From Candidatus Deferrimicrobiaceae bacterium (GTDB lineage: Bacteria > Desulfobacterota > Deferrimicrobia > Deferrimicrobiales > Deferrimicrobiaceae): 64,000 nt of DNA. Below, piece by piece: positions 9,485 through 54,042 of the stretch (position 1 is its first letter; each line of letters opens with the position of its first letter). The stretch spans positions 64,001 to 128,000 of the forward strand of contig CAWBVY010000007.1 in the NCBI GenBank assembly GCA_963792415.1, read 5' to 3'. The notes beneath the pieces are model-generated. The model saw only the letters and a program-made list of their open reading frames with translations, did not search any database and was not told where the DNA came from. The position numbers and the translations under genes are program-made.

Positions 9485-9646
9485 TTATTTTCCGAGCTTT
9501 TCCGGGAGCGAGAACTCGCGTCCGCAGTGGGGGCAGATCACGGTGTCGCCCGGCTTCCATTCCTTCGCTGCCTTCGTGGAGGCGCAGGAGGAAAGCAGGA
9601 ACAGGGCGCAGAGCGGCAGGAGCAACAGCTTTCCGTATCGTCTCAT
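9485..9646 (-). CDS. Small lipoprotein with a CPHCG motif
   Basis: 53 aa, signal peptide with lipobox LLSSC, then CPHCG; AGGGAG RBS. Confidence 0.65.
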   Translation of the reverse strand: MRRYGKLLLLPLCALFLLSSCASTKAAKEWKPGDTVICPHCGREFSLPEKLGK

Positions 9647-9754
9647 CGCGGAGTCTCCCTGCGCCGTTCTTCCCTCGAGGAACTTTCCGGTACGCGGCGC
9701 GACCTGCATATTATAATCGGCGCTGGATCCATGAGGCGGAAAAAGGGGGGCGTG

Positions 9755-32211: not shown

Positions 32212-32362
32212 CGACGGCGCAGGCCGGTTTCGGACGGCAATTTTATTTTATGCTTGACATGACGGGGACCTCGCGCCGGATAATGTCAGGCTTGGAAGGA
32301 ACCGGCACGCGGATCCATCGTTTTTCATGGATATCGCCCGGGAGAAAAAAAGGGGGAGGAGC

Positions 32363-32854
32363 ATGTATACCAACATCCTGTTGCCGACGGACGGGCTGGG
32401 GAAGTGCCAGTTCGGTACCTGTCACGGAATCCTGCTCGCCAAAGACCTCGGCGCCAAAGTGACGGCGGTTTGCGTCACGGAGAAACTTTCCGGTCAGGAA
32501 ATCCTGAAGATCTACAATCCCGACATGCTGTTCGGGGCTACCGATGCGAAGAACGCGAAAGAGTCGATGAAGCGCGCCGAGGACCTGCACAAGGATTTTG
32601 CGGAAAAGGCGCTCGACGTTGCGGAGAAGATGTGCGCGAACAACGGCGTGAAGTGCGACAAGGTGTATCTCACCGGGGAAAACCCCACGGACGGAATCCT
32701 GAAGGTTGCGAAGGAAAAGAACTGCGACCTCATCTTCATATCGACCCACGGCAACCCGGGGTTGATGGGCACGCTGTTCGGGACCGTCGCGACGAAGATC
32801 CTCTCGAGGTCGAAGACTCCCGTCCTCGTGCATCATTGCGGGGGACCCGGCTGA
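32363..32854 (+). CDS. Universal stress protein (Cys-rich)
   Basis: MYTNILLPTDG, DLIFISTHG...LFGTVATKIL...PVLV. Confidence 0.9.
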   Translation: MYTNILLPTDGLGKCQFGTCHGILLAKDLGAKVTAVCVTEKLSGQEILKIYNPDMLFGATDAKNAKESMKRAEDLHKDFAEKALDVAEKMCANNGVKCDKVYLTGENPTDGILKVAKEKNCDLIFISTHGNPGLMGTLFGTVATKILSRSKTPVLVHHCGGPG

Positions 32855-33032
32855 GCGTTCGGTAGGCGTTTTCCGCGGGACCCGGACGCCGCGGGGAGGG
32901 CGATTCGCGGGATATCGTGACCCGTGGCGGGGAGACGTATCCCCGTCACGGGTCATGTCCCTTCCGGAGCCTTTCCCCCGGGCTCCGGGCCGTCGTGTCC
33001 CTTCCCCGGAAAACGTTTTCAAAGGAGGCCGC

Positions 33033-34823
33033 ATGACCACCGGTGAACCCAGGGACATGCTCGCCATCCTCGCCGGTCCCGGACCGGAGGTGTTCACCAC
33101 CCGCCCCGTCATCATGGGCACCCACGGCATGGTCACTTCCGGACATTACCTCGCCAGCAGGATCGGTCTTCACATCCTCGAGGAGGGAGGGAACGCGGTC
33201 GATGCCGGGGTGGCGATGGGATTCGCCCTGGCCGTGCTGGAGCCGTACATCTACGGCATCGGCGGCGAAGTGCCCATCCTCGTCTACCTCTCGGACGAGA
33301 AACGGGTCGTGAGCCTCTCCGGCCAGGGGCCGGCTCCCCAGAGGGCGACCATCGAGTGGTTCGGAAAGAACGGGATCGACGCCATTCCCGGCGACGGGCT
33401 GCTGGCCGCCGTCGTCCCCGACGCCGTCTCGACCTGGATCTCCGCGCTGTCGCGCTTCGGAAGCATGACCCTCTCCCAGGTCCTTTCCCCCTCCGTGGAG
33501 CTCGCGGGGCGGGGCTTCCCCATGTACGAGAGGCTCCGGTCCGCACTCGAGAGGAGTTCTCCGCAATTCCTGGAGATGTGGCCCTCCTCGGCGCACGCCT
33601 ATCTTCCCGGCGGCCGGATTCCGGCCGTGGGCGAAATCTATGTGCAGCGCGACCTTGCGGGATTCTTTACCATGCTCATCGACGCGGAATACCGGGAAAG
33701 GGGAAGGGGGCGCAGGGGTGCGCTGGCAGCGGCCCACGACGCGTTCTACAAGGGGGAAATAGGGGAACGGATCGTGAAATTCGTTCAGGAGCGCCGCCTC
33801 CCCGATTCGACGGGGAAGAGAAACGGCGGGCTGATCACGAAGGAAGACCTGCAGCGCTACGCGGCCCGGGTCGAGGAACCCGTGACGGCGAACTACCGGG
33901 GGTACGACGTCTTCAAGTGCGGCCCCTGGTCCCAGGGGCCGGTCTTTCTCCAGCAGATCAACCTGCTGGAAGGGTACGACCTGGCGGCGATGAAGCACAA
34001 CTCCCCGGAGTACATCCACCTCCTGATCGAGGTCGCCAAACTCGCGTTCGCGGACCGGGAAACCTGGTACGGCGACCCGGACTTCGCCGAAGTGCCCCTC
34101 GACGTTCTTCTGTCCAAGGAATACGCCGCGGCGCGCCGGAAGCTCATCGACCCGGGCACCGCTTCCATGGAGCTGCGCCCCGGCAATGCGCGCGCGTACA
34201 GGCCCCTGGAGAGGCACGGCGGCTCGGACATCCACAAGGGCGACACCACGCATCTGGACGCCATGGACCGGTGGGGGAACATGCTGTCCGCGACCCCCTC
34301 CGGCGGCTGGTTCCGCAGTTCGCCGGTCATCGAGGGGTTGGGCTTCCCCCTCGGAACCCGCCTGCAGATGTTCTCCCTGGATCCCGGCCACCCCAATGGC
34401 CTCCGGCCGGGGAAGCGTCCCCGCACGACCCTGACCCCCTCCCTGGCGCTGAAGGACGGCAGGCCGTACATGGCGTTCGGCACTCCGGGCGCGGACCAGC
34501 AGGACCAGTGGTCGCTCCAGTTCTTCCTGAACTGCGTGGACTTCGGCATGAACCTGCAGGTCGCGGTCGACGCCCCCACCTTCCACACGGGCCATTTCCC
34601 GTCTTCCTTCCACCCGCACGGCGCGGAGCCCGGGGCGCTTTACCTGGAGGGCCGCATCCCGGGGGAGACGATCGCATCCCTCCGGGAAAAGGGGCACGGG
34701 GTGCGGGTGGGGGGGGATTGGAGCCACGGCCGGGTTCTCGGCATCCGATTCGATGCCGGCAGCGGCACGATCTCCGGCGCGGCGACGGCACGGATGGAGA
34801 CCGGGTACGCCATGGGTTGGTAA
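33033..34823 (+). CDS. Gamma-glutamyltransferase-family Ntn hydrolase (candidate oxamate amidohydrolase, HpxW-like)
   Basis: GGNAVDA, KLAFADRE, autocleavage site GD/TTH, DRWGN, PGKRPRTTLTP, FGTPGADQQ; AAAGGAGG RBS. Confidence 0.88.
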   Translation: MTTGEPRDMLAILAGPGPEVFTTRPVIMGTHGMVTSGHYLASRIGLHILEEGGNAVDAGVAMGFALAVLEPYIYGIGGEVPILVYLSDEKRVVSLSGQGPAPQRATIEWFGKNGIDAIPGDGLLAAVVPDAVSTWISALSRFGSMTLSQVLSPSVELAGRGFPMYERLRSALERSSPQFLEMWPSSAHAYLPGGRIPAVGEIYVQRDLAGFFTMLIDAEYRERGRGRRGALAAAHDAFYKGEIGERIVKFVQERRLPDSTGKRNGGLITKEDLQRYAARVEEPVTANYRGYDVFKCGPWSQGPVFLQQINLLEGYDLAAMKHNSPEYIHLLIEVAKLAFADRETWYGDPDFAEVPLDVLLSKEYAAARRKLIDPGTASMELRPGNARAYRPLERHGGSDIHKGDTTHLDAMDRWGNMLSATPSGGWFRSSPVIEGLGFPLGTRLQMFSLDPGHPNGLRPGKRPRTTLTPSLALKDGRPYMAFGTPGADQQDQWSLQFFLNCVDFGMNLQVAVDAPTFHTGHFPSSFHPHGAEPGALYLEGRIPGETIASLREKGHGVRVGGDWSHGRVLGIRFDAGSGTISGAATARMETGYAMGW

Positions 34824-34854
34824 TTCCAGCGGTTTTTCCTGTCCATTTTTCTCC

Positions 34855-34932
34855 TTGACAGCAGCCCCCCCTCTGGCTATCCTGCATTGGTCTGACAATC
34901 AGTCTGTATACAGTATTCGGTCGGGCCACCAT
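34855..34932 (+). promoter_or_regulatory. Sigma70 promoter with FadR/GntR-type operator(s)
   Basis: TTGACA-17-TATCCT, then ATTGGTCTGACAAT (34886-34899), palindrome CTGTATACAG (34904-34913) and a degenerate TCGGTCGGGCCA. Confidence 0.7.
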
Positions 34933-34960
34933 ACCTGTGCGTTAAACACAACGGAGAGGC

Positions 34961-37129
34961 ATGAAGACACCGGTCGTACGGTCAGAGGATCTCTCGCTTC
35001 GCGTCGCGAAGGCCTTCATCGAGGATGAGGGGAAGGGCCTCGCCCGCGTGGATGCCGATCAGCTGAAGGCCCTGGGGGCGGTGCCCGGCGACTGCCTGCT
35101 GATCACCGGCCGCCGGTCCACGGTGGCCCGCGCCGGCCATCTCACCCAGCATTACGAAGGCAAGGGCCTGGTGCAGATCGACAGCGTCACCCGGGACAAC
35201 GCGCAGATCTCCGTGGACGAGACCTGCACCGTCCAGAAGGTCCCCTCCAAGCTGGCCGACAGCATCATTCTCTCCCCCGTCGACGTGCGAAGCCAGCCCC
35301 CGAAGGAACAGGAAATCCCCCACATCCTCCAGCTGCTGTCCGGGCTCCACGTGGTGATCGGCGACCGCGTGCAGATCGTCCTGTTCGGAACCCGTCCGCA
35401 ATTCTTCATGGTGGAGGGGGCAAGCCCGCGGGGGGCCCTCCGGATCACCGCCCACACGGCCATCACCTTCCGGAGCGCCGATTTTGCAAGCGAAAAGGCC
35501 TTCAGGACCTCCTACGAGGACATCGGCGGCCTGGATAAAGAGTTGGGCCACATCCGGGAGATGATCGAGCTTCCCCTGAAATTCCCCGATCTGTTCACCG
35601 AGCTCGGCATCGATCCGCCCAAGGGGGTTCTCCTCTCCGGGCCGCCGGGAACGGGAAAGACCCTCATCGCGCGTGCCATATCGAACGAGGTGCGGGCCCA
35701 TTTCATCCACGTCAACGGACCCGAGCTCATCCACAAGTTCTACGGGGAGAGCGAGGCCAAGCTTCGTCAGGTCTTCGACGAGGCCCGGAAGAACTCCCCC
35801 AGCATCATCTTCTTCGACGAGATGGACGCCCTCGCCCCGAAACGGGCCAACGTCGTCGGAGACGTGGAAAAGCGCGTCGTGGCGCAGCTCCTGGCGCTGA
35901 TGGACGGCCTCGTCTCCCGCGGGGAGGTCGTGATCATCGGCGCCACGAACATGCCGGAACTCGTCGACCCGGCCCTGCGCCGCCCGGGGCGTTTCGACCG
36001 CGAAATCACGATCGGCGTGCCGAAGCGGGCCGACCGCCTCCAGATCCTCAAGATCCATTCCCGCAAGATGCCGCTCGCGGAGGATGTCGACCTGAAGCAT
36101 CTGGCCGAGATCACCCACGGATACGTCGGCGCGGACATTGCCGCTCTGTGCACCGAGGCGGGCATGGCGACGCTTCGGCGCATCCTCCCCTCGGTCAAGT
36201 TCCAGGTGGATGCCAAGCCCGTCCTGGAGGAAGGGTCGAAGATCCAGGTCACCGCCGGGGATTTCGTGTCCGCCTTCAAGGCGGTCGAGCCCACCTCGAC
36301 GCGGGAGTTCATGAGCGAGCGGCCGAACATCTCCTTCAAGGACGTCGGGGGGCTGCGCGGGATCAAGGAGAACCTCCTTTCCCTGATGCGGCTTCCCCTC
36401 CAAGGTTTTCCCCTCTTCGTCAATTCCCGCCTGAGCCCCCCAAGGGGCGTCCTCTTCTCGGGTCCCTCCGGAACGGGGAAAACCTTGATGGCCAAGGCGC
36501 TCGCGGGGGAGATGGGGATGACCCTCTTCATCGTCGACCCTCCAACCCTCCTTTCGAAGTGGGTCGGGGAGTCGGAAAAGGGGCTGAGGGAGGTCTTCAA
36601 GCGGGCGAAGCAGGCCTCTCCCTGCATCCTGTTCTTCGACGAGATCGAAGCCATGGCGCCGGCGCGGACCGCGGAAGATTCCGGCCAGGTCTCCCAGCGG
36701 ATCGTCAGCCAGCTGTTCCGGGAGCTCGACGGGCTGCCGAGTTCGCTGGGGATCGCGGTCGTCGCCGCGACGAACCGGATCGACCTGATGGAGCCGGCGC
36801 TGCTCCGGGCGGGACGCTTCGATTCCATCATCGAATTCCCCCTCCCCGGAAAGGAGGAGAGGGGCGAGATCCTGGAGTTGTACATGCAATCGCTGCCGTT
36901 CCGGACCGAGGTCGACATCGAGCTCCTCGCCGGCATGAGCGAGGGATGGACCGGGGCCGAACTCGAGGCCCTCTGCAAGAAGGCGGTCGTCGTGGTTCTG
37001 GAAGAGAGCCTCGCAAGGGGGGAGAAACTCGATTACATGCTCCTCAAGATCACGACGAAGCATTTCGACCAGGCGATCGAAAGGAACGGGACCTCTTCGG
37101 CGATCCGACCCCGCGCAATGAAGCATTGA
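34961..37129 (+). CDS. CDC48/VAT/p97-family double-AAA+ ATPase
   Basis: N-domain plus YEDIGGL; two AAA modules (GPPGTGKT/FFDEMD and GPSGTGKT/FFDEIE); KFYGESE, KWVGESE and RPGRFD/RAGRFD. Confidence 0.93.
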   Translation: MKTPVVRSEDLSLRVAKAFIEDEGKGLARVDADQLKALGAVPGDCLLITGRRSTVARAGHLTQHYEGKGLVQIDSVTRDNAQISVDETCTVQKVPSKLADSIILSPVDVRSQPPKEQEIPHILQLLSGLHVVIGDRVQIVLFGTRPQFFMVEGASPRGALRITAHTAITFRSADFASEKAFRTSYEDIGGLDKELGHIREMIELPLKFPDLFTELGIDPPKGVLLSGPPGTGKTLIARAISNEVRAHFIHVNGPELIHKFYGESEAKLRQVFDEARKNSPSIIFFDEMDALAPKRANVVGDVEKRVVAQLLALMDGLVSRGEVVIIGATNMPELVDPALRRPGRFDREITIGVPKRADRLQILKIHSRKMPLAEDVDLKHLAEITHGYVGADIAALCTEAGMATLRRILPSVKFQVDAKPVLEEGSKIQVTAGDFVSAFKAVEPTSTREFMSERPNISFKDVGGLRGIKENLLSLMRLPLQGFPLFVNSRLSPPRGVLFSGPSGTGKTLMAKALAGEMGMTLFIVDPPTLLSKWVGESEKGLREVFKRAKQASPCILFFDEIEAMAPARTAEDSGQVSQRIVSQLFRELDGLPSSLGIAVVAATNRIDLMEPALLRAGRFDSIIEFPLPGKEERGEILELYMQSLPFRTEVDIELLAGMSEGWTGAELEALCKKAVVVVLEESLARGEKLDYMLLKITTKHFDQAIERNGTSSAIRPRAMKH

Positions 37130-37156
37130 TCGCGTTTCTCGATTGAAGGAGCGGAA

Positions 37157-37915
37157 GTGAAGCATAAGTCGCAGATGTTCAAGCCGATCAAGAAGGCGAA
37201 GGTATACGAGGAGATTGTGACCAAGATCAAGGACATGGTCGAAAAAGGCCGGTTCAAGTCGGGAGACCAGCTTCCGGTGGAGCGGGAGCTGGCCGAGGTC
37301 TTCCGGGTGAGCCGATCCTCCGTCCGGGAAGCTCTCCGCTCCCTGGAGACCCAGGGATTCATCGAGAGCCGCCAGGGAGACGGGACGTACATCGCGAGCC
37401 AGCCCGTCGAGTCCCTGGTCCGCCCCCTTGCCTCCGTCATCCTCACGGAGAAGGACGATCAGATGGAGCTATTCGAAATGCGCCGGATGATCGAGCCGGA
37501 TCTCGCCTATCTCGCGGCGGAACGGGCCACCGAGGAAGAGATCGCCATGATGGAGAAGGTCCTCGCCCTTCAGGAAGAACAGATCGCCCGGGGAGAATTC
37601 GGGACGGACGTGGACAGGAATTTCCATTACATCATGGTGAGGGCGGCGAAAAACAAGGCCATCCTGCGCATCACCGACAACATCATCGACCTGCTCGCGG
37701 AGAGCCGCGAGCAGTACCTCCAGGTGGATGGAAGACCCCAGAAATCCATTTTACGCCACAGGGAAGTGCTCGATGCGATCCGTGCCAGGGATCCTGAGCG
37801 GGCCGAGAAATGCATGCTCGAGCACTTGGTGGATATCGAGACCAGTCTTTTCGGGACATCCGGGAGACGGAGGTCGAAGAGGGAATCGTCACCAGACTCT
37901 AACGAAAGGAGGTGA
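37157..37915 (+). CDS. FadR/GntR-family regulator (PdhR/LldR-like)
   Basis: GDQLPVERELAEVFRVSRSSVREAL wHTH and an FCD domain with D..FH...H...H. Confidence 0.93.
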   Translation: MKHKSQMFKPIKKAKVYEEIVTKIKDMVEKGRFKSGDQLPVERELAEVFRVSRSSVREALRSLETQGFIESRQGDGTYIASQPVESLVRPLASVILTEKDDQMELFEMRRMIEPDLAYLAAERATEEEIAMMEKVLALQEEQIARGEFGTDVDRNFHYIMVRAAKNKAILRITDNIIDLLAESREQYLQVDGRPQKSILRHREVLDAIRARDPERAEKCMLEHLVDIETSLFGTSGRRRSKRESSPDSNERR

Positions 37916-37978
37916 ACCGGAGTTCGCCGGGCAGTTCGTATCGATTCGTATCGTAGACAAAAGAAGGAGGAAAGCACA

Positions 37979-38593
37979 ATGGCAGATGTATTTGAAGTAA
38001 CGATCTGGGCCCGCGGTGTGACCCAGGACATGGAAGGAAGGCACCTGTCGCTCGTGATCGCAAACGCGGCATCGAAAGGCGGCAAGCACACCCAGGCCTG
38101 GGACAACTACGCGGACCTTCCGGACCGCGTCCAGGTTCCGCTGCGCAAGTACGCCCGCATCAGCGACGAAGAGATCGAAATGCGCTACGTGTACGAGAAC
38201 AACAACCCGGAGCTCGTCTTCGTCATGGACGACACGATCATCAAGGGGATCGACATCCTTCGCGGGATGAAGAAGGGCGGAACGCTGGTCGTCAACAGCA
38301 AGCGGTCGGCCGATGAACTCCTCGCGCTGATCCCCAACAAGGACCTGTTGAAGGCCTTCGTCACCGTGGACGCCACCGGGATCATCGGCGGCAGCGGTCT
38401 CGACAGCGTCGACTTCATGGGTTCGGAAGGCGGCACGGAAGCCGTCTCCGTGGCCGTCGGCATGGCCGCACCGTTGATCGGCGCGGCGACCAAGGTCTGC
38501 GACAAGTTCACCCTGGCAAACGCCGTCGAATGCGCCGGGAACAAGGGCGCCGTGAAAGAAGGGGCCAAGACCGCCGTAGTGAAATCCTTATAA
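37979..38593 (+). CDS. Oxalate oxidoreductase gamma-domain subunit
   Basis: TIWARGV, QAWDNYADLPDRVQVP and GSEGGT match the N-terminal part of Moorella OorD as recalled. Confidence 0.82.
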   Translation: MADVFEVTIWARGVTQDMEGRHLSLVIANAASKGGKHTQAWDNYADLPDRVQVPLRKYARISDEEIEMRYVYENNNPELVFVMDDTIIKGIDILRGMKKGGTLVVNSKRSADELLALIPNKDLLKAFVTVDATGIIGGSGLDSVDFMGSEGGTEAVSVAVGMAAPLIGAATKVCDKFTLANAVECAGNKGAVKEGAKTAVVKSL

Positions 38594-38616
38594 GGCAAAG
38601 GAAGGAGAAGAAAAAA

Positions 38617-38964
38617 ATGAGTCCAATGTACTGTGAAAAGTTCCGGATCCCCAAGCACCTCGAAATCGCCGACGGCGCGGTGGTCCCGGCCCCCGTGGGC
38701 GAGCAGCCGATGATGAAGACCGGGAACTGGCGGACCGAGCGTCCGGTCATCGACCATGAAAAGTGCACGGCCTGCCTGAACTGCTTCGCCTTCTGCCCGG
38801 ACTCCAGCTGGCACTTCGACGAGAAGTCCGAAAAGATGGTCTGGAACCCGATCTACTGCAAGGGTTGCAGGATGTGTGTCGAGGTTTGCCCGGTGGATGC
38901 GCTCCGGCTCGAGAACGAACTGAATTTCAAAGGCGGCGTCGCCCGTCTTGACAAGCCTTACTAG
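38617..38964 (+). CDS. Oxalate oxidoreductase delta (2[4Fe-4S] ferredoxin) subunit
   Basis: TGNWRTERP, CTACLNCFAFCP, CKGCRMCVEVCP. Confidence 0.85.
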   Translation: MSPMYCEKFRIPKHLEIADGAVVPAPVGEQPMMKTGNWRTERPVIDHEKCTACLNCFAFCPDSSWHFDEKSEKMVWNPIYCKGCRMCVEVCPVDALRLENELNFKGGVARLDKPY

Positions 38965-38984
38965 ATTCCAAGGAGGAGAAACAC

Positions 38985-40178
38985 ATGCCGAGAGAAACTG
39001 TAATGGCGGGTTGTTCCGCCGCTGCGAATGGCGCCAAGTTGGCAAGAGTAGAGGTCATCAGTTCGTACCCGATCCGCCCGTACACGGGCATCATGATGGA
39101 GCTTTCCAGGATGGTGGCCGACGGGGAGCTCGAAGCGGAATTCGTTCACGGTGAAGGCGAACACGCACAGGTCTCCATCGCCCAGGGCGCGTCCGCGTCC
39201 GGTGCGAGGGCGTACACGGGATCCTCGGGCGTCGGCGTCGCCTACGCGATGGAGGTCTACTCCCCCATCTCGGGCGGCCGCTATCCGGTCCAGATGGCCA
39301 TCGCCGATCGCGCGTACGATCCCCCCGGGGACTTCGGTTCCGAGCACACGGACGTCATGAGCTGCAACGACCAGGGATGGATCCTGGGCTGGGCCGAGAC
39401 GCCGCAGGAAATCCTCGACAACACCATCATGTATTACAAGATCGGCGAAGACCCGAAAGTCATGCTGCCGCAGTGGTCGGCGCAGGACGGCTACTTCGTC
39501 TCCCACATCCCCGGCAAGGTCAGCATTCCGGACCAGAAGGCGGTCGATGAATTCCTTCCGCCGTACAATTGCCCGCACGCACTGAATCCGAAGAACCCGA
39601 CGAACCACGGTCCCCAGATCTACCCGGACCAGGGCCCGGCGATCGACCTGCAGAGGGCGCAGGCGTTCCTGAACGTGCCGAAGGTCATCGAGAAGGTCGT
39701 TGCCGACTACAACAAGCAGTTCGGCCGCAACTATTCCCCGTTCCTCGAAGAGTACAAGACCGAGGGCGCCGACTACGTGTTCTTCCTCCAGGGCGGGCAT
39801 TGCCGTACCGCCCGGTTCGCGGTCGACCACCTCCGGAAGAAGGGAGCCAAGGTCGGAATGGTGAAGCTCCGCTTCGTCCGTCCCTGGCCGACCGAGAAGA
39901 TCGTCGAATCCCTTTCCAAGTTCAAGGCCGTCGGTGTCGTCGAGTCCAGCACCTCGTACGGCGGCTGCATGAAGGGCGGGAAGCTCATGGAAGAGGTCCG
40001 CGCCTCCCTGTACGATTCGCCGACCCGGCCCGCCGTCACGTCGTTCATGGCCGGCCTTGGCGGCGAAGTCATCACCCTCGAGGAGTTCTACAACATGGCG
40101 AAGATCCTCGACGGGGCCGCGAAGAAGGGGAAGGTCGATCAGTACGTCTACTGGGTCGGGTTCGACAACGGAATCTAG
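38985..40178 (+). CDS. oorA: Oxalate oxidoreductase alpha subunit
   Basis: YPIRP instead of the PFOR YPITP; EGEHAQ, DRAYDPPGDFG, GPQI. Confidence 0.88.
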   Translation: MPRETVMAGCSAAANGAKLARVEVISSYPIRPYTGIMMELSRMVADGELEAEFVHGEGEHAQVSIAQGASASGARAYTGSSGVGVAYAMEVYSPISGGRYPVQMAIADRAYDPPGDFGSEHTDVMSCNDQGWILGWAETPQEILDNTIMYYKIGEDPKVMLPQWSAQDGYFVSHIPGKVSIPDQKAVDEFLPPYNCPHALNPKNPTNHGPQIYPDQGPAIDLQRAQAFLNVPKVIEKVVADYNKQFGRNYSPFLEEYKTEGADYVFFLQGGHCRTARFAVDHLRKKGAKVGMVKLRFVRPWPTEKIVESLSKFKAVGVVESSTSYGGCMKGGKLMEEVRASLYDSPTRPAVTSFMAGLGGEVITLEEFYNMAKILDGAAKKGKVDQYVYWVGFDNGI

Positions 40179-40210
40179 TAAAAAACTGCTGAGAAGCATA
40201 CAAGGAGTGA

Positions 40211-41194
<984 letters not shown>

Positions 41195-41220
41195 GCGGCA
41201 GAGCAGCACGTCGGTGCGGT

Positions 41221-41260
41221 CGGGGAGGGGCACGGGAGTGCCTGTGCTCCTCCCCGGTTT
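41221..41260 (+). terminator. Hairpin after oorB
   Basis: CGGGGAGGGGCAC...GTGCTCCTCCCCG followed by GTTT. Confidence 0.55.
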
Positions 41261-41452
41261 AAAAAAATATTGAGTGCCACGCATCAATAAAACGGTTATT
41301 CTCAAGAAGTAGGTCAAATCGGCGTCGGACGCGACTGCGTGAAAAAATGGCCAGGGGATAATCGAAAAGGAAGGAGGTGTCCGCGCAGGCGGAGTCGCTC
41401 TTATGCGACCCTAGATGCTGATTTGAAAAATATTGCACGGGAGGATTCATCC

Positions 41453-42445
41453 ATGGGGAAAAGGTATTCAGGTCTGAAGATCGGTCTGGTCGTCGCATGC
41501 TCTTTGGCGTTGGCGTTCACTTCCATCGGTACGGCAAACGCCTGGGTGCCTGACAGGCCGGTAGAGTTCATCGTTCCGGCGGGCGCCGGCGGCGGCGCGG
41601 ATGTCATGGCAAGGTTCATCTCCCCCCTCGTTTCCAAGTACAAACTGTCGCCGAAGCCTTGGGTCGTCATCAACAAGTCCGCAGGCGCCGGGGCGGAAGG
41701 CTTCATGTACGTGAAGGGCCAGAAGGGCAACGCGAACCTCATCATCATCACCCTCGACAACCTGTTCACGACCCCCCTGGCTACCGGGGTTCCCTTCAAC
41801 TGGAAGGACCTGACCCCGGCTTCCCGCCTGGCGCTCGACTACTTCTGCCTCTGGGTCAACAAGGCTGAGGGCTACAAGACCGCCACGGAGTATCTTGACG
41901 CCGTCAAGAAAGCGCCGGGCAAATTCGTCATGGGCGGCACCGGAGCGAAGCAGGAAGACCAGATCATCACCGTCCTGCTCGAGCAGGCCTTCGGACTGAA
42001 ATTCAATTACGTGCCGTTCAAGGGCGGCGGAACGGTGGCCGTCGAGCTCGTCGGCAAGCACATCAACTCGTCCGTCAACAACCCGGCCGAGGCGAGGAGC
42101 CACTGGAAGAACGGGACCCTGGTGCCGCTGGCGACGATCGATTCCGCGCGGATCGCCCTGCCGGACTGGGATCAGATCCCCACGATGAAAGAGGCCACCG
42201 GCAAGGACCTCAGCTACCTGATGCTGCGCGGCATCTTCCTGGCGCCCGGGGTGAAGCCGGAAGTCGTGGCTTACTACGTCGATACGTTGAAGAAGGTGAC
42301 GGAAACCCCGGAATGGAAGAAGTACATCGCCGACAACGGGCTGAAGGATGCCTACCTGACGGGGCCGGAATTCGTGAAATGGCTCGAGGATAAGGAATCC
42401 ACGACCAAGGACCTCATGGCGAAAGGCAACCTGTTGAAGAAGTAG
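41453..42445 (+). CDS. tctC: Tripartite tricarboxylate transporter substrate-binding protein
   Basis: Signal peptide; PVEFIVPAGAGGGADVMAR, NKSAGAG, YVPFKGGG. Confidence 0.9.
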   Translation: MGKRYSGLKIGLVVACSLALAFTSIGTANAWVPDRPVEFIVPAGAGGGADVMARFISPLVSKYKLSPKPWVVINKSAGAGAEGFMYVKGQKGNANLIIITLDNLFTTPLATGVPFNWKDLTPASRLALDYFCLWVNKAEGYKTATEYLDAVKKAPGKFVMGGTGAKQEDQIITVLLEQAFGLKFNYVPFKGGGTVAVELVGKHINSSVNNPAEARSHWKNGTLVPLATIDSARIALPDWDQIPTMKEATGKDLSYLMLRGIFLAPGVKPEVVAYYVDTLKKVTETPEWKKYIADNGLKDAYLTGPEFVKWLEDKESTTKDLMAKGNLLKK

Positions 42446-42468
42446 CAAAGGATACGCAGTTCGCACCG

Positions 42469-42504
42469 GGAGGAAGCGGGGTTCACTCCCCGCTTCCTCT
42501 CTTT
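42469..42504 (+). terminator. Hairpin between tctC and tctB
   Basis: GAGGAAGCGGGG...CCCCGCTTCCTC followed by TCTTT. Confidence 0.6.
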
Positions 42505-42542
42505 GTGCGGCATTTTCATATCGATTAGATTGGGGAGGAAAG

Positions 42543-43031
42543 ATGCGAAAGGCCAATCTTGGGGTGGCCATTTTCCTGTTTTTGATCGGCGCGATCGTCA
42601 TGTACGACGCGGTGCGCCTCGGATGGCACTATGACCCGGCGTCCGGTCCGGGAGCCGGCTTCCTGCCGTTTTATCTGTCCCTGGGCGTGCTCCTCTGCAC
42701 CAGCGTTTTCATCGTCAAGCAGGTCATGCAACTGTCGAAGATCGGGGTCGTGGGAGACACGCCGTTGATCCAGGAGGGGGGGCTGAAGCCGATCCTCTGG
42801 GTGCTGATTCCATCGACGGCCATGGTAGTCCTCATTCCCCTCATCGGGCTCCACTTCGCGGCCTGCATTTATCTCCTGTTCTACATGCGGGTGGTCGGAA
42901 AGATCGGATGGCTCGAGTGCATCCTGGTGAGCGTCCTGTTCCCTATCGGGTTGTACATCGTTTTCGACCGGCTGTTCCTGATTCCATTGCCGGACGGGAT
43001 GCTCGGAAATTATATCAAGCTTCCATTTTGA
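42543..43031 (+). CDS. tctB: TTT small membrane subunit
   Basis: GPGAGFLP, four TMs, VFDRLFLIPLPDG. Confidence 0.88.
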   Translation: MRKANLGVAIFLFLIGAIVMYDAVRLGWHYDPASGPGAGFLPFYLSLGVLLCTSVFIVKQVMQLSKIGVVGDTPLIQEGGLKPILWVLIPSTAMVVLIPLIGLHFAACIYLLFYMRVVGKIGWLECILVSVLFPIGLYIVFDRLFLIPLPDGMLGNYIKLPF

Positions 43032-43050
43032 TATCGGAGGGAGATCAACC

Positions 43051-44562
43051 GTGGCGGAGAATTTTCACCAGCTGATGATGGGCATCAGCGTCTCGATGCA
43101 GCCGTACAATTTCATGATCGCCATGATCGGGCTGGTGCTCGGGGTCATCGTGGGCGTCCTTCCGGGATTGGGGGGAGCCAACGGGGTCGCCATCCTCATC
43201 CCCCTCACGGTGGCTATGCAACCCATCTCGGGCATCATCCTGCTGGCGAGCATCTACTGGGGAGCGCTCTACGGCGGGAGCATCACGTCCATCCTGTTCA
43301 ACATCCCCGGGGAACCGTGGTCCGTTGCGACCACGTTCGACGGCTACCCGATGGCAAAGAAGGGGAATGCCGGAAAAGCGCTCGTTCTGTCGTTCTTTTC
43401 CCACTTCGTCGGCGCGGTGCTCGGCGTCATCATGTTGAGCTTCTTCGCGCCTCTCATCGCGGCCTTTGCGTTGCGGTTCGGTCCCGCCGAGATCTTTTCC
43501 GTGATGGTGCTCACATTCAGCGCGTTCGTGGGCTTAAGCGGGAAGGATCCTTATAAAACGCTCGTCTCCATCTTTCTCGGGTTCATCCTGGCCGCGGTCG
43601 GGATGGACATCGTCACTGGACAGTTGCGAATGACGTTCGGTTCGATCGACCTGATGGGCGGGTTCAACTTCATCGTCGCGGTCATCGGCCTGTTCGGGTT
43701 GGGGGAGATCTTCCTCACGGTCGAGGAAGGCCTCAAGCTCGAGTCGACGGAGGGCGGCAGGGTCACGTTCAAGGATATGGCGTGGGGAGTAAAGGAACTG
43801 ATTATTGAATGGAGGGCGCTTCTGCTGGGCTGCCTCATCGGGTGCTGGATGGGTCTCAAGCCCGGCGGCGCGACCCCCGCCTCCTTCATGGCGTACGGGT
43901 TCGCCAAGCAGAGCAGCAAGAAAGGCGACGAATTCGGGAAAGGGGCTTCCGCGGGGATCATCGCCCCCGAAGCGGCCGCCCACGGCGCGGGAACGTCCGC
44001 CGCGCTTCCCATGATCACCCTGGGAATCCCCGGATCGCCTACCATGGCCGTCATCATGGGCGGTCTCATGATCTTCGGGCTGCTGCCCGGACCGATGCTC
44101 TTTGTGGAACACCCCAGTTTCGTATGGGGCTTCATCGGCAGTTGCTGGATCGGAAACTTCATCGGCCTTCTGGTCGTGCTGGCGTTCGCGCCGGTGTTCG
44201 CAGCGGTCCTCAAGATCCGGTTCGCCATCATCATGCCGATCATCGTTTACGTCTGCTCCATCGGCGCCTACGCCGTGAACAACCGGATGATCGACATCTA
44301 CTACATGATCGGGTTCGGCGTCATCGGATATCTCTTCAAGAAACTCGACTATCCTCTCGCGCCGTTGGTCCTGGCGCTGGTGCTGGGAGACATGGCGGAG
44401 TCCGCGTTGCGGCAGGCGCTCCTCATTTCCGGGGGCAGCCCTCTCGTCCTGGTCCAACCCCCCATCGCGCTGCCGATCATGGTCGCGGCGGGGCTCATCT
44501 TCTTCTGGCCGTCGATCTCTGGTATAATAAAGAAAAGGCGCGTAAAGGTCGGACCCGGCTGA
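43051..44562 (+). CDS. tctA: TTT large membrane subunit
   Basis: GVLPGLG, YGGSITSILFNIPG, FDGYPMA, APEAA, TLGIPGS. Confidence 0.93.
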   Translation: MAENFHQLMMGISVSMQPYNFMIAMIGLVLGVIVGVLPGLGGANGVAILIPLTVAMQPISGIILLASIYWGALYGGSITSILFNIPGEPWSVATTFDGYPMAKKGNAGKALVLSFFSHFVGAVLGVIMLSFFAPLIAAFALRFGPAEIFSVMVLTFSAFVGLSGKDPYKTLVSIFLGFILAAVGMDIVTGQLRMTFGSIDLMGGFNFIVAVIGLFGLGEIFLTVEEGLKLESTEGGRVTFKDMAWGVKELIIEWRALLLGCLIGCWMGLKPGGATPASFMAYGFAKQSSKKGDEFGKGASAGIIAPEAAAHGAGTSAALPMITLGIPGSPTMAVIMGGLMIFGLLPGPMLFVEHPSFVWGFIGSCWIGNFIGLLVVLAFAPVFAAVLKIRFAIIMPIIVYVCSIGAYAVNNRMIDIYYMIGFGVIGYLFKKLDYPLAPLVLALVLGDMAESALRQALLISGGSPLVLVQPPIALPIMVAAGLIFFWPSISGIIKKRRVKVGPG

Positions 44563-44651
44563 GCCAAGCGGGCCGAAGCCATTTTTATCGGAACTTGTTG
44601 GATATAAAGGCGAAATGCATCTGTGACCGTACGTCCGGTACTTGGAACTGA

Positions 44652-44709
44652 GAAGAAGCGGCCTGGGGGAAGGGCACCGTACCCCATCCTTGGCCGCTTC
44701 TCTTTTTTT
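44652..44709 (+). terminator. Intrinsic terminator after tctA
   Basis: GAAGCGGCC...GGCCGCTTC followed by TCTTTTTTT. Confidence 0.6.
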
Positions 44710-44723
44710 CCGGGGATCCGGCG

Positions 44724-45665
44724 ATGACGTCGCCGGGAAAGATCCTCATCACCGGCGGCGCAGGGTCGTGCGGGAGGCATCTGACCGCATCGCTCCTGGG
44801 GCGGGGGTACGAGGTGCGGGTGATCGACAAGGACGTGGAGCCCCTCCGCTCCGTCGCGAACAAGGGGCTTGCGCTCTTCCGGGCCGGGGTGGAAGACAGG
44901 GACGCCCTGAAGTCGGCGGTGGATGGGGTGGACGCCGTCCTCCACCTCGCCTGGTCTTTTTCCGAAGATCCCCTGGTCGTCCTGGAGCAGGACCTGAGAG
45001 GCCACATCTACCTGCTCGAGGAGATGGCCTCCCGGAAAGTACGGCACCTGATCTACGCGAGCACGGCGGTGGTGTACGGGAAACCTCGGTATTCCCCCAT
45101 CGACGAACAGCATCCCCTTCTCGTGGAAGAGGCGAGAAAACCCCTCTACGGGATCGCGAAGGCCGCCGCCGAGAAACTGTGCCTGATGTACGGAAAGACC
45201 AAGGGACCGCCGGCCACCGTCGTCCGTTTCTGGTGGGCGTACGGGGACGATATCGGCGGCAAACATCTGCGAGAGATGCTCAAGACCGCCTCGGCGGGAA
45301 CCCCCCTGGAGGTCCCCGGCGATTCCGGCGGATCATTCCTCCACATGGCGGACCTGGCGCAGGGGATGGAACGATGTCTTTTCAACCCCAAGGCGTACGG
45401 GCGGACCTGGAATTTCTCCACCGTCTACGTCACCTGGGAAGAGGTGGCGGAAATGGTCCGCGACGTGACCGGCTCGCGCTCCGGGATCCGGAGCATCCCC
45501 AGGGAGGAATGGACGGGCGCTGCGTTTCTTTCCGACCGTTGGGAATTGTCCGATTCCGCGGCCAGGGAATTCCTCGGTTTCCGTCCCATGGACGCCGCTG
45601 CGGCGAAGGCATCCCTGAAAGTCGCGATCACCAACTGCTGGGAGGCGATGCGCAGGAATACGTAA
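44724..45665 (+). CDS. NAD-dependent epimerase/dehydratase (extended SDR)
   Basis: ITGGAGSCG, ASTAVVYG, YGIAK (YxxxK). Confidence 0.88.
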   Translation: MTSPGKILITGGAGSCGRHLTASLLGRGYEVRVIDKDVEPLRSVANKGLALFRAGVEDRDALKSAVDGVDAVLHLAWSFSEDPLVVLEQDLRGHIYLLEEMASRKVRHLIYASTAVVYGKPRYSPIDEQHPLLVEEARKPLYGIAKAAAEKLCLMYGKTKGPPATVVRFWWAYGDDIGGKHLREMLKTASAGTPLEVPGDSGGSFLHMADLAQGMERCLFNPKAYGRTWNFSTVYVTWEEVAEMVRDVTGSRSGIRSIPREEWTGAAFLSDRWELSDSAAREFLGFRPMDAAAAKASLKVAITNCWEAMRRNT

Positions 45666-45719
45666 TCCCTCCGTAACGATAAGATCCCAATCCCCTGGTA
45701 AGAGAAACGATGGAGGTAT

Positions 45720-46559
45720 GTGATGTTTGATTTGAGCTGGCTGGGTTCGATTTCCCTGGATTCGTTCATACCTGCGGTGCTCGGCGCCGTCCGGCACGAC
45801 TTCGGTTGGTTGGGGTGGATCTCCTTCGACTACCAGTTCTTATCCGCATTGGGGGCCATCATCCTGATCGACCTGGTCCTGGCGGGCGACAACGCCGTCG
45901 TCATCGCCCTGGCCGTCCGGAACCTTCCCGGGAAACAGAAGATGTGGGGCATCATCCTGGGGTCCGGCGCCGCCGTCCTGCTGCGGGTCATCTGCACCAT
46001 GTTCGTGGCGCAGATGCTGATGATCCCTCTGCTGAAATTCGTCGGAGGGGCGTTGATCCTCTGGATCGCGGTGAAACTCCTGACGCAGGAGCACGAGGAC
46101 GAAAAGGTCGACCAGGCGAAGAACCTGATCCAGGCGATCAAGTTGATCGTCATCGCGGACATCGTCATGAGCCTCGACAACATGCTGGCGGTCGGGGGCG
46201 CGTCCAAGGGGAACATGTTCCTGCTTCTCTTCGGGCTGGGGTTGAGCATCCCTCTCGTCGTCGGGACCAGTTCCCTCCTTTCCATGCTGATGGGCAAGTA
46301 CCCGATCATCGTCGTCATCGGCGCCGCCGTCCTGGGGAAGGTCGCGGGCGAGATGATGACGACCGATGCACTGGTCCAGAAGTGGTTCGCCCTCCCGCAC
46401 TATGTGACCATAATCGCCGAGATCACGTTCGCCATCGGGGTCGTCGTGGTCGGGAAACTGATCATGAAGCGCAGGAAGGCGCAGAGGGAATCGGTCGAGG
46501 CGGCGGGTTTGCCGGTGTCGGAGAGCGAACCGGAAAAAGCGCCCGTGAAAGACAAATAA
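45720..46559 (+). CDS. TerC-family (YjbE-like) membrane protein
   Basis: IDLVLAGDNAVVIALA, ADIVMSLDNMLAV, GLGLSIPL. Confidence 0.92.
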   Translation: MMFDLSWLGSISLDSFIPAVLGAVRHDFGWLGWISFDYQFLSALGAIILIDLVLAGDNAVVIALAVRNLPGKQKMWGIILGSGAAVLLRVICTMFVAQMLMIPLLKFVGGALILWIAVKLLTQEHEDEKVDQAKNLIQAIKLIVIADIVMSLDNMLAVGGASKGNMFLLLFGLGLSIPLVVGTSSLLSMLMGKYPIIVVIGAAVLGKVAGEMMTTDALVQKWFALPHYVTIIAEITFAIGVVVVGKLIMKRRKAQRESVEAAGLPVSESEPEKAPVKDK

Positions 46560-46684
46560 CCCCCCCTGCGGGGGCGATTTCGCCGGTTACGATTCCCATG
46601 AAGTGCGGCCGTCCGTTGTATTCCGGACGGCCGTTTCATTATAATGACGGGTACGTCTGAAACCATGCCTCGTGGAGGGTGCTG

Positions 46685-49345: not shown

Positions 49346-49358
49346 CCGCGTCGCAACC

Positions 49359-49395
49359 GAGGGGCCCCCTCCCGCCCCGAGAGGGGGCCCCTCTT
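49359..49395 (+). terminator. Hairpin after ppdK
   Basis: GAGGGGCCCCCTC...GAGGGGGCCCCTC inverted repeat. Confidence 0.55.
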
Positions 49396-49494
49396 CCGAT
49401 TCCTTCTGGCGCCCCACTCCCGTAAGAAATGCGCTCCCTGGGGTACCCCCGCAGTAGGAAGAACGGGGGGGCATGCCTCTGGTAAGATAACAAG

Positions 49495-50010
49495 ATGCAT
49501 CGGAATCCATTCGAGCGGGAATACCTGCCGCACTCCTCGGGATGTTTCCTCTGCGGGGAAGAGAACCGCTCCGGCGTCCAGGCGCGGTTCTTCGTGGAGG
49601 GGAACGAGGTCCTGGGAAGGGTGGTCCTCCCCCTCCACCTCAACGGGTACAAGAACGTCGCCCACGGCGGGGTCGTCTCCGCGCTCCTCGACGAGACGAT
49701 GGGGTGGGCCGCCACCGTGTTCGGGAAGACGCACCCCATGTACGTCACGGGCGAGCTCACGGTGAAGTTCCTTTCCCCCGTGCCGGTCGGCGCCGAGATC
49801 GAGGTCCGCAGCCGGCTCGTCGAGGATGCGGGAAGGCTCGCCTACTGCGAGGGGGAAATCCGTTGCGGCGGGAAGGTGTGCGCCCGCGCCCGGGGGAAGT
49901 TCGTCCCGATGAGCCCGGAAGGGACGGCGGAAGTGATCCCGTACCTGCGGTTCGAGGGATGCCGACGCTTCCGGGAGATCTTCGACGCGTACCGGGGGGC
50001 GAAGGGATGA
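49495..50010 (+). CDS. PaaI-family thioesterase
   Basis: CFLCGEEN, HGGVVSALLDE. Confidence 0.9.
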   Translation: MHRNPFEREYLPHSSGCFLCGEENRSGVQARFFVEGNEVLGRVVLPLHLNGYKNVAHGGVVSALLDETMGWAATVFGKTHPMYVTGELTVKFLSPVPVGAEIEVRSRLVEDAGRLAYCEGEIRCGGKVCARARGKFVPMSPEGTAEVIPYLRFEGCRRFREIFDAYRGAKG

Positions 50011-53078: not shown

Positions 53079-53178
53079 GCATCCTCCGATCCGGTTGCAA
53101 TGTTAAAGCGAACGATTGTCGACAACCAATTATAAGGAGGTGCCGGGCGGCGGCGCAACGGAAAAGATCGACGGCCGT

Positions 53179-54036
53179 TTATTCTCTCGGGCGGGCGCCC
53201 CGGTACAGTGCGGTGACGACGAAACAGGCCGCGGCGGCCAGGACGACGGTCGCGCCGGTCGCGGTGTCGAGATACCAGGAGGCGACGATCCCGGCGAACC
53301 CCGACAGCGCGGCGACCCCCACGGAGACCCAGAGGGCCGCGGCGGCCCCCCGGGCGACGTTGCGGGCGGCGGCGGCGGGGATGACGAGCAGGGCGGTGAC
53401 CAGGAGGATTCCCACGGCGTGGATCGCCGCGGTTACGACGAGGGCGACGACCAGCGCGAAGGAGATCTCCACGGCCGGCGCACGGGCTCCCTTCGTCCGG
53501 GCGAATCCCTCGTGGATCCCCAGCAGCAGGATGCGGTTGTAGAGGAGGGAGAGGAAGACGCATACGAGCAGGAAGAGACCGGCCATCCACAGAAGTTCGG
53601 CGTCGGTGACGGCGAGCGGGTCGCCGTACAGGAACGCCTGCAGGTTCCGCGTCAACCCCTTCTCCCTGCTGATGATCGCGATCCCGAGGGCGACGACGGT
53701 CGAGAAGAAGACCCCGATGACCGTATCCGAGGAGAGTTCGGTGCGTCCCCTGACCAGGGTAATGGCGACGGCGACGACGGCGCCGAAGGCGACCATCGTC
53801 CAGGAGGGGGAGATGCCGAGGAGGACCCCGAGGGCCACGCCGGTGAAGGCGGAATGACCGATCGCGTCGGAGAAGAAGGCCATCCGGTGCTGGACCAGGG
53901 GGACGCCGAGCGCGGCCGCGGCGGGGGCCGTGAGGAGCAGCGCGAGGAGCGCGCGCTTCATGAACGCCGGTTCCGCGAAGGCGAACGGGAGCAGCCGGTC
54001 CATCAGGGCGAACACGCCGGAGAGGACCGTTTCCAC
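53179..54036 (-). CDS. Zn/Mn ABC transporter permease (ZnuB-like)
   Basis: MAFFSDAIGHSAF, FLYGD, VGILLVTALLVIPA. Confidence 0.9.
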   Translation of the reverse strand: METVLSGVFALMDRLLPFAFAEPAFMKRALLALLLTAPAAAALGVPLVQHRMAFFSDAIGHSAFTGVALGVLLGISPSWTMVAFGAVVAVAITLVRGRTELSSDTVIGVFFSTVVALGIAIISREKGLTRNLQAFLYGDPLAVTDAELLWMAGLFLLVCVFLSLLYNRILLLGIHEGFARTKGARAPAVEISFALVVALVVTAAIHAVGILLVTALLVIPAAAARNVARGAAAALWVSVGVAALSGFAGIVASWYLDTATGATVVLAAAACFVVTALYRGARPRE

Positions 54037-54042
54037 CGGACC

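Follow-up and report, generated by a model that had tools for sequence, protein, structure and literature searches.

Oxalate oxidoreductase (OOR) is a thiamine diphosphate enzyme with three [4Fe-4S] clusters that cleaves oxalate into two CO2 with no need for CoA, handing two low-potential electrons to ferredoxin. To our knowledge no other enzyme carries out anaerobic, CoA-independent oxidation of oxalate, and studies of OOR are confined to one acetogen. Here we analyse a 64-kb stretch of a Candidatus Deferrimicrobiaceae genome (contig CAWBVY010000007.1; all 64,000 nucleotides are referred to as the window), in which ORF and profile scans show ten genes, all on the + strand, filling positions 33033-44562. 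These encode a protein related to gamma-glutamyltranspeptidase (GGT), a Cdc48-like ATPase, a GntR-family regulator, the four OOR subunits (oorGDAB, for gamma, delta, alpha and beta) and a tripartite tricarboxylate transporter (TTT; tctCBA). A preliminary description of this DNA had reported the same co-oriented run, and had proposed that it converts oxamate to oxalate and oxalate to CO2. In our analysis the core of the locus is probably an oxalate-catabolic module made up of OOR, TctCBA, the regulator with its FCD domain and a constant Cdc48/VAT-type partner that we infer to be dedicated to OOR, with the GGT-like gene lying outside it. In such a module TctCBA would import the dicarboxylate and OorGDAB would split oxalate into two CO2, delivering the electrons to ferredoxin. 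The regulator would repress the promoter before cdc48 through FadR-like inverted repeats, from which binding of oxalate or a close metabolite would release it, and the OOR-dedicated ATPase may serve to assemble OOR, to pull out Fe-S subunits that are damaged, or to rescue enzyme caught with a dead-end thiamine adduct.

The alpha and beta subunits pass the cut-offs of the NCBIfam equivalog models for OOR (NF045791, 597.8 bits against a cut-off of 500; NF045792, 602.3 against 590), and the gamma and delta subunits match the two halves of NF045790, a model of a fused 316-residue OOR 'delta' subunit, with 202.8 and 86.1 bits respectively. Among enzymes in the PDB, the best match of alpha is OOR of Moorella thermoacetica (5c4i_A, E 2.3e-154), while gamma and delta best match residues 13-207 and 232-314 of 5c4i_B (164.4 and 80.4 bits). 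Beta, too, has a Moorella OOR chain as its best enzyme match, with 480.5 bits to 5c4i_C versus 254.6 bits to the beta part of pyruvate:ferredoxin oxidoreductase (PFOR; 9bt4_C). The comparison of the subunits with Moorella OOR and PFOR that the preliminary description had called for was thus run on profiles and PDB entries, and it favoured the OOR side; together with motif conservation, these scores bear out its claim that the four 2-oxoacid oxidoreductase subunits are an OOR.

A published account of the Moorella enzyme (PMC5020499) presents Arg31 of the 'unique YPIRP motif', Arg109 and Asp116 as the basis of oxalate binding and of a plug-loop mechanism, and in this respect agrees with the oxalate-specific site to which these residues had been attributed at the outset. 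When the window alpha subunit is aligned to 5c4i_A, YPIRP (Arg31), Arg109 and the DPPGDFG loop with Asp116 are all in register. Each of the motifs originally quoted could be found again, namely SSYPIRPYTG (with Arg31), DRAYDPPGDFG and HGPQI in alpha, YANTG in beta and MGSEGG in gamma. We counted motifs in full-length alpha ORFs from 89 related loci. [Y/F]PIRP was present in 85 of 85 OOR-like alphas (70 with Y, 15 with F) and D[RK]xxDxPGDFG in 83 of them, whereas all three paralogous 2-oxoacid:ferredoxin oxidoreductase (OFOR) alphas, including that of the second OFOR in the window's genome, carried [Y/F]PITP and lacked D[RK]xxDxPGDFG. The [Y/F]PIRP and plug-loop motifs are not chance matches. 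Two Betaproteobacterial OOR loci (L043 at 13226-15502 and L053 at 3791-6112) have, within a few kb after oorB, another OFOR alpha-like gene, a fused one, which encodes a 758-773 aa protein with FPITP and has a beta-like partner.

Enzymes of the PorCDAB/VorCDAB type have the same gamma-delta-alpha-beta order, the same subunit split and the same thiamine diphosphate and Fe-S motifs as the window enzyme. Their alphas, however, carry YPITP without the DRxxDPPGDFG loop, whereas the window alpha has YPIRP with the loop and scores to PorA models at about half its OOR score (309 versus 598 bits); PorB and Vor models behave likewise. Judged by sequence, OorGDAB is a four-subunit orthologue of Moorella OOR and belongs to a known, already curated enzyme family. 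No oxalyl-CoA decarboxylase above cut-off was found in the genome (best score 198.5 versus 739.4), and OOR is therefore its sole recognisable oxalate route. Could such an enzyme act on another small 2-oxoacid, for example glyoxylate, oxamate itself or mesoxalate, and not on oxalate? Some room for a shift in specificity is left by the split gamma and delta genes, the different type of transporter and the 59-65% identity to Moorella-group proteins (59% for alpha and 65% for beta, to Neomoorella proteins), but every residue reported to define oxalate binding is kept and both alpha and beta lie above the curated equivalog cut-offs, and we regard a different substrate as very improbable.

The most constant companion of OOR is a gene to which the preliminary description had given no role. 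It had suggested a survey of gene neighbourhoods, which we carried out by searching 89 OOR loci with the ten window proteins as tblastn queries. Five of these are from Firmicutes (Moorella naiadis, M. mulderi, Neomoorella carbonis, N. stamsii and Thermosediminibacter litoriperuensis; the Moorella-group loci were reached with a short degenerate motif), and 84 are others. A 395-aa protein (P0068) tried as the Moorella alpha subunit proved not to be identical to 5c4i_A. In the survey cdc48 was the most constant partner of OOR, and the GGT-like gene turned out to be loosely linked. cdc48 lies upstream of oorA on the same strand in 62 of the 66 loci with at least 4.3 kb of upstream sequence, and somewhere in the locus in 63 of 66; in one locus (L043) it is downstream of oor instead. 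Where at least 9 kb was available on both sides (36 loci), cdc48 was found in 35, the regulator in 35, TctA in 21 and the GGT-like gene in 13. In a 301-genome sample of the window's phylum, cdc48 is directly upstream of oor in all four OOR-positive genomes. Overall, cdc48 and the GntR/FCD regulator gene are near-universal partners of OOR, Moorella and Neomoorella included, and the GGT-like gene is not constant. The survey shows cdc48 and the regulator to be constant with oor in Bacillota, Deferrimicrobiaceae, Thermodesulfobacteriota, Nitrospirota, Myxococcota, Methylomirabilota and Betaproteobacteria.

Cdc48-like genes of 45-50% identity are present in 40 of the 301 phylum genomes, far more than carry OOR. 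Of 16 OOR-less Cdc48 loci that were fetched, 13 share one conserved cluster, while the other three lie in unrelated contexts. In the cluster representative (L091), Pfam detects two GvpL/GvpF proteins, an Hsp20/GvpH-like protein, a GvpN-like AAA_5 ATPase, a sigma-54 activator, a PAS histidine kinase and a response regulator, and these domains mark the conserved OOR-less clusters as gas-vesicle clusters. In a quick tree of 61 proteins, from which 14 near-identical rows had been left out (IQ-TREE, LG+G4), the 45 OOR-linked ATPases fell on one side of a branch with SH-aLRT 100. After three Firmicutes proteins had been included and one row on a long branch dropped (63 rows), a branch with SH-aLRT 99.6 separated 48 OOR-linked ATPases from 15 others. 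Both trees are unrooted, their OOR-linked rows were picked for lying beside OOR, and their comparison set comes from one phylum. The OOR-linked ATPases are a distinct lineage kept with oor across Bacillota and at least six Gram-negative phyla, and the gas-vesicle paralogues form its sister group. In loci L090-L100, L104 and L105 the Cdc48-like gene sits between an Hsp20/GvpH-like gene and two GvpL/GvpF genes.

The window ATPase has the PF02359 N domain, two PF00004 AAA modules and the PF17862 lid domain, and scores 760.9 to TIGR01243, which is below the cut-off of 802.65 even though the match is full-length. Its Walker A motifs read GPPGTGKT and GPSGTGKT, the DE pairs of both Walker B motifs are intact, and both rings carry aromatic pore loops (KFYGESE in D1 and KWVGESE in D2). 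Aromatic pore loops in both rings place a protein closer to the archaeal unfoldase VAT than to p97, and as in VAT they imply that substrate is threaded. The C-terminus (...RAMKH) has no tail resembling HbYX, the type of C-terminal motif with which it was compared. No partner protease is encoded near cdc48, and proteasome-family genes in the genome amount to a single match the size of HslV (184 aa), which makes a 20S partner unlikely.

From its gene linkage and clade structure, the ATPase would most likely thread or remodel OOR, be it for assembly, for extraction of damaged Fe-S subunits or for release of a dead-end cofactor adduct. More tentatively, we raise the possibility that OOR everywhere depends in vivo on its own VAT-like unfoldase, an ATP-using 'OOR activase'. 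Such an activase would spend ATP on pulling apart or threading OOR subunits. In this way it could free the enzyme of dead-end thiamine adducts, such as those that suicide inactivation by pyruvate might leave, or exchange Fe-S subunits that have been damaged; the sister-clade ATPases would do comparable work on gas-vesicle proteins. To go by the title of Pierce et al. 2017, OOR reportedly undergoes suicide inactivation by pyruvate, which offers a rationale for a remodeller. A literature search, with the primary OOR papers outside its reach, found no published explanation for the OOR-neighbouring ATPase. Complex prediction with residues 1-190 of the ATPase and OorA, OorG or OorD (24-row alignment per pair) gave 0.40, 0.00 and 0.00 against a mark of 0.32, values that speak neither for nor against binding.

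A different client is also conceivable. The ATPase might act on the regulator, for instance by stripping the GntR repressor from DNA, or serve general proteostasis under oxalate or metal-chelation stress, and would then travel with the operon for regulatory reasons. The regulator gene always adjoins the ATPase gene, in either order; the gas-vesicle paralogues serve a wholly different structure, which points to a versatile family of remodellers; and N-domain conservation singles out no client. Per-domain conservation did not separate OOR-linked from gas-vesicle-linked proteins. We nevertheless consider this explanation unlikely, since a separate OOR-linked clade across at least six phyla speaks for a function tied to the OOR system and not to general stress, and since, as described above, no partner protease is encoded nearby, the one proteasome-family match is of HslV size and the ATPase has no HbYX-type tail. 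Furthermore, we know of no unfoldase for which removal of a GntR repressor has been described.

The regulator combines an N-terminal GntR winged helix (PF00392, 75.7 bits) with a C-terminal FCD domain (PF07729, 103.7 bits), is present in the Firmicutes loci as well as in nearly all fully flanked loci (35 of 36, as given above), and is presumed to be an oxalate-responsive repressor. Before cdc48, a promoter scan found a promoter-like site, TTGACA-17-TATCCT, at 34855-34883. It is followed by inverted repeats, TTGGTCTGACAA at 34887-34898, CTGTATACAG at 34904-34913 and CGGTCGGGCCAC at 34918-34929, which resemble the E. coli FadR operator. This operator-like block is kept in six of six aligned close relatives, which carry GGTCGGACC where the window has CGGTCGGGCCAC. 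The first of the repeats has a single exact copy in the 64-kb window; no operator-like motif precedes the GGT-like gene or tctC, and allowing up to two mismatches gave 4 matches, none of them in front of these genes, where 11.2 are expected by chance. Downstream of oorB lies a hairpin of -41.4 kcal/mol (z-score -5.63, 0 of 200 shuffles as good), which is likely an operon end or attenuator and is separated from tctC by an AT-rich 190-bp spacer. On the strength of the promoter/operator block, the hairpin and the spacer, the locus can be read as three transcription units, of which the first would be the GGT-like gene, the second cdc48-gntR-oorGDAB and the third tctCBA.

Contigs from RNA libraries (four libraries from four studies, of estuary or sediment according to their records) match the locus at no less than 95% identity. 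They cover cdc48, oorGDAB and tctC, in part also the GGT-like gene, and bridge the regulator-oorG-oorD and oorA-oorB junctions. In the regulator bin, 37167-37663, there is little or no cover, and this absence is not interpretable. The contigs give a hint of expression in situ.

All three TTT components are encoded together (PF03401, PF07331 and PF01970), and TctC has a signal peptide. A TctA homologue is present in 28 of the 50 OOR loci with at least 6.5 kb of downstream sequence, and two TctC/TctA lineages accompany OOR in different clades, with 67-77% versus 36-51% identity to the window proteins. In line with the preliminary description, the FadR-type (FCD) regulator and the TTT importer form part of the same conserved module.

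Several points weigh against an oxalate module with a dedicated ATPase. Gamma and delta each stay under the 230-bit cut-off of NF045790 because their genes are split, and the specificity for oxalate rests on homology together with three conserved residues. Three OOR loci have no cdc48 nearby: for L065 a homologue is found about 18 kb away, apparently on the same contig, the genome of L069 has a 47%-identical homologue elsewhere, and in the genome of L041 no homologue was found. Identity of the ATPase N domain is 38% within the OOR-linked clade and 33% to the gas-vesicle paralogues, a small difference for a domain that might select the client, and as evidence on the role of the ATPase there are its linkage to oor and its place in the tree. 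Moorella OOR may have been made active in E. coli without the ATPase, in which case the ATPase would be unneeded for basic assembly. On the regulatory side, the operators are assigned by resemblance to the E. coli FadR site, and the RNA-library contigs could include contaminating DNA and cannot define a single transcript.

The GGT-like gene is where our analysis departs from the preliminary description. Its product matches PF01019 with 427 bits and reaches 330.6 with TIGR00066 (cut-off 357.85) and 232 with NF007187 (cut-off 990), below the cut-off in both cases. The closest solved relative is 6j3a/6j3i, a 617-residue 'gamma-glutamyltranspeptidase' (489.9 bits), for which a literature search under the identifier 6J3A found no paper. 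The GGTs of Bacillus licheniformis and E. coli follow with 236.7 and 215.2 bits, and the oxamate amidohydrolase HpxW of Klebsiella (5hft) with 85.7 bits to its large and 55.9 to its small chain. Thus the comparison with HpxW and true GGTs that had been proposed places the protein far closer to 6j3a and true GGTs than to HpxW. It lacks a signal peptide and is predicted to be cytoplasmic, and its nucleophile Thr (in GDTTHLD) aligns with the first residue of processed small chains. The GGT active site contains residues that bind the alpha-amino and alpha-carboxylate groups and a Gly-Gly oxyanion hole; acidic and amide residues of one segment hold the alpha-amino group of the gamma-glutamyl moiety, and removal of charge there shifts GGTs to glutaryl-type acyl groups. 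Relative to the Helicobacter pylori enzyme, the window protein has PLGTRLQMFS for LLNNEMDDFS, TT for SS and GA for GG. With the gamma-glutamyl-binding residues lost, an acyl group bearing a carboxylate is plausible, and oxalyl would be one of several. The protein is best described as a member of the GGT family that looks neither like a classical GGT nor like HpxW.

The proposal that it hydrolyses oxamate or an N-oxalyl amide, releasing oxalate and ammonia in the cytoplasm for use by OOR, can draw on the position of the gene, which is adjacent and co-oriented here and in seven close relatives. Among the seven genomes searched in family f1, the only carrier of the GGT-like gene besides the window's genome (G103) is also the only other genome with OOR. 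OOR-adjacent copies form two clades in a GGT tree, Deferrimicrobiaceae-like and Desulfobaccales, which indicates at least two independent origins beside OOR, and in a Nitrospirota locus (L065) a 68%-identical copy stands 8 kb downstream and is preceded by a FadR paralogue of its own. A cytoplasmic enzyme with Arg in place of the acidic or amide residues that hold the alpha-amino group would also suit an acyl group carrying a carboxylate. In L065 (18838-21182) this paralogue, another FadR-type regulator, shares 45% identity with the OOR regulator, and the OOR locus itself lacks the upstream cdc48.

On the other hand, the scores to 5hft given above are a fraction of those to 6j3a and true GGTs, and 23 of the 36 fully flanked OOR loci lack the gene, as do all five from Firmicutes. 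Two OOR-positive genomes (G246 and G262) lack it, while eight OOR-negative genomes carry homologues, four of them beside a TRAP transporter (with an aromatic/histidine ammonia-lyase in most) and four beside NUDIX, DsbA, Usp and Fur genes. The window gene lies behind a promoter region of its own and does not share the operator motif. No purine, allantoin or oxamate-forming genes were found near it in the window or near its counterparts in related loci; its neighbours in the window are Usp, permeases, an epimerase, TerC and PPDK. HpxW (PDB 5HFT) belongs to the same GGT/Ntn-hydrolase superfamily and likewise has Thr at the start of its small chain, but its context is hpx-type and purine-catabolic, and none of this surrounds the window gene. 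Within the family, the gene could owe much of its proximity to OOR to synteny inherited along with Usp, PPDK and PEPCK, whose order is rearranged. We therefore judge an oxamate function improbable, and the oxamate arm of the preliminary description is poorly supported in view of the low HpxW scores, the 13 of 36 loci, the apparently separate transcription unit without an operator and the missing purine and allantoin genes. The GGT-like gene is a loosely associated, lineage-specific neighbour and not a demonstrated part of the pathway. In the OOR-less loci L118, L119, L120 and L121, homologues of 44-48% identity adjoin TRAP transporter genes, and three of these four loci have an aromatic/histidine ammonia-lyase family gene (by Pfam in L119, by clustering in the others). 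In L019, L020 and L024, from other Deferrimicrobiaceae-like genomes, the gene set of the window recurs in a different order: upstream of cdc48, a GTP-dependent PEPCK gene and a Usp gene separate an inverted GGT-like gene from the OOR module, and PPDK lies further out.

Features of the locus, with positions in the window
Feature	Positions	Strand	Details
Variable segment, 17.3 kb	32232..49512		absent from two same-genus genomes
GGT-family Ntn amidohydrolase	33033..34823	+	596 aa from ATG 33033; ORF opens 32955; PF01019
Promoter-like site and operator-like inverted repeats	34855..34929	+	promoter scan, conservation; function inferred
Cdc48/VAT-type double-ring AAA+ ATPase	34961..37129	+	722 aa; PF02359, two PF00004, lid domain
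GntR-family regulator with FCD domain (FadR subfamily)	37157..37915	+	PF00392 and PF07729
OOR gamma (domain III)	37979..38593	+	204 aa; NF045790 positions 14-206, 202.8 bits
OOR delta (two [4Fe-4S] clusters, ferredoxin domain V)	38617..38964	+	115 aa; NF045790 positions 226-315
OOR alpha	38985..40178	+	397 aa; YPIRP (Arg31), Arg109, Asp116 plug loop; NF045791
OOR beta (thiamine diphosphate, proximal cluster)	40217..41194	+	325 aa; NF045792
17-bp hairpin after oorB, then GGTTTAAAAAAA	41220..41257	+	folding energy; likely operon end or attenuator
TctC periplasmic binding protein	41453..42445	+	PF03401; ORF opens 41339
TctB small membrane subunit	42543..43031	+	PF07331
TctA large membrane subunit	43051..44562	+	PF01970, 464 bits

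For three genes the start was chosen inside the open frame. The ATG of the GGT-like gene is preceded by a ribosome-binding site, AAAGGAGG, and fits the N-terminus of the closest solved homologue. The delta subunit starts at the ATG of MSPMY..., the ORF start at 38530 being an over-extension, and TctC likely begins MGKRYSG..., with a signal peptide that ends ...TANA.

Comparison with congeners shows how the module sits in the genome. The window flanks at 26.4-32.23 kb and 49.51-60 kb are contiguous in two same-genus genomes (G284, locus L111; G136, locus L112), in which 1.1-1.2 kb replaces 32232-49512; in G284 this spacer encodes a moaA-like protein. Besides the OOR module with cdc48, the regulator and oorGDAB, and besides tctCBA, the 17.3-kb segment carries genes for Usp, the GGT-like protein, an epimerase, TerC and PPDK. 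Because the OOR block lies in this variable segment, oxalate use is an accessory trait in the genus. No tRNA was found in 30000-52000. Outside the segment, two tandem paralogous APC permeases of about 658 aa with long C-terminal extensions (27645-29621 and 29722-31701) are conserved in congeners without the OOR segment. Two ORFs of about 620-630 aa, at 53116-54987 and 8681-10582, have very high first-position GC (0.87 and 0.79), and the former has no Pfam match at E <= 1e-5. The host had been described as a non-acetogen. The genome, however, contains a homologue of the acetyl-CoA synthase CdhC/AcsB (G000:C1:256984-257445, 201 bits, 725-aa ORF), so that this label is not established. By analogy with Moorella, the CO2 and reduced ferredoxin that OOR yields could enter a pathway of the Wood-Ljungdahl type.

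OOR is widespread in anaerobic metagenome-assembled genomes (MAGs) and yet patchy. A pattern scan with one genome per species found confirmed OOR relatives in at least 219 species genomes, and a protein search returned 1010 proteins at E <= 1e-100. By record titles, the OOR loci belong to Deferrimicrobiaceae (the closest, 92-95% alpha identity), Syntrophales, Syntrophobacter, Syntrophorhabdus, Desulfobaccales and Desulfomonilaceae, and further to Nitrospirota/Thermodesulfovibrio, Anaeromyxobacter and other Myxococcota, Methylomirabilota, Betaproteobacteria and one Opitutaceae. In the 301-genome sample of the window's phylum, which is an even sample, alpha scored above cut-off in four genomes, the window's own included, and in none of the four same-genus genomes. 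The expectation that automated annotation would call the enzyme pyruvate synthase holds for older NCBI names of MAG proteins ('pyruvate ferredoxin oxidoreductase' or 'transketolase C-terminal domain-containing protein'); it does not hold for JGI, which names many homologues 'oxalate oxidoreductase subunit alpha', nor for the NCBIfam OOR equivalog models.

Oxalate is a common product of plants, fungi and mineral weathering, and OOR in uncultured sediment and groundwater anaerobes could couple it to low-potential ferredoxin. The near-invariant Cdc48-type unfoldase gives bacterial Cdc48 homologues a testable client, and raises the question of ATP-driven maintenance of an Fe-S/thiamine enzyme, which is relevant to the expression of OOR for CO2 or oxalate biocatalysis. 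An OOR activase, if real, would be the first described for a 2-oxoacid:ferredoxin oxidoreductase, and OOR the first defined metabolic client of a bacterial Cdc48 homologue. As for the GGT-like gene, an oxamate function should not enter its annotation.

Compared with known systems, the ATPase shares the N domain and two AAA rings with VAT/Cdc48 and with actinobacterial Cpa; unlike these it is locked to a metabolic enzyme operon, has no HbYX-like tail and has no 20S partner in the genome. Rubisco activase and CbbX offer a functional analogy only, that of an AAA+ remodeller encoded beside one enzyme prone to dead-end inactivation; they differ in AAA+ clade and architecture and are not members of the same family. 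The importer has all three components of a TctCBA system of the TTT family, its substrate here presumably being oxalate rather than citrate. The closest counterpart of the whole module is that of Moorella OOR (PDB 5C4I, 5EXD, 5EXE), in which all subunits are orthologous and YPIRP/Arg31, Arg109 and the Asp116 plug loop are common to both. Moorella-group loci (Neomoorella carbonis, N. stamsii, Moorella mulderi and Thermosediminibacter) likewise have GntR/FCD and Cdc48-like genes directly upstream, the gene order in Firmicutes being GntR/FCD, CDC48, fused gamma-delta, alpha, beta. The two differ in that gamma and delta are two genes in the window and a single 315-aa protein in Bacillota OOR, a split seen in 79 of 79 non-Firmicutes loci with a gamma match, as against one 315-aa ORF in all four Firmicutes loci that cover the region. 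Uptake is assigned to TctCBA in the window, whereas two Moorella loci have an LctP-family or MFS permease downstream of oorB. Unlike Moorella OOR, the window cluster lies in a variable 17-kb segment of a Deferrimicrobiaceae-like Gram-negative host. The enzyme family is known; what is new here is a four-subunit, TTT-coupled variant together with a near-invariant unfoldase partner.

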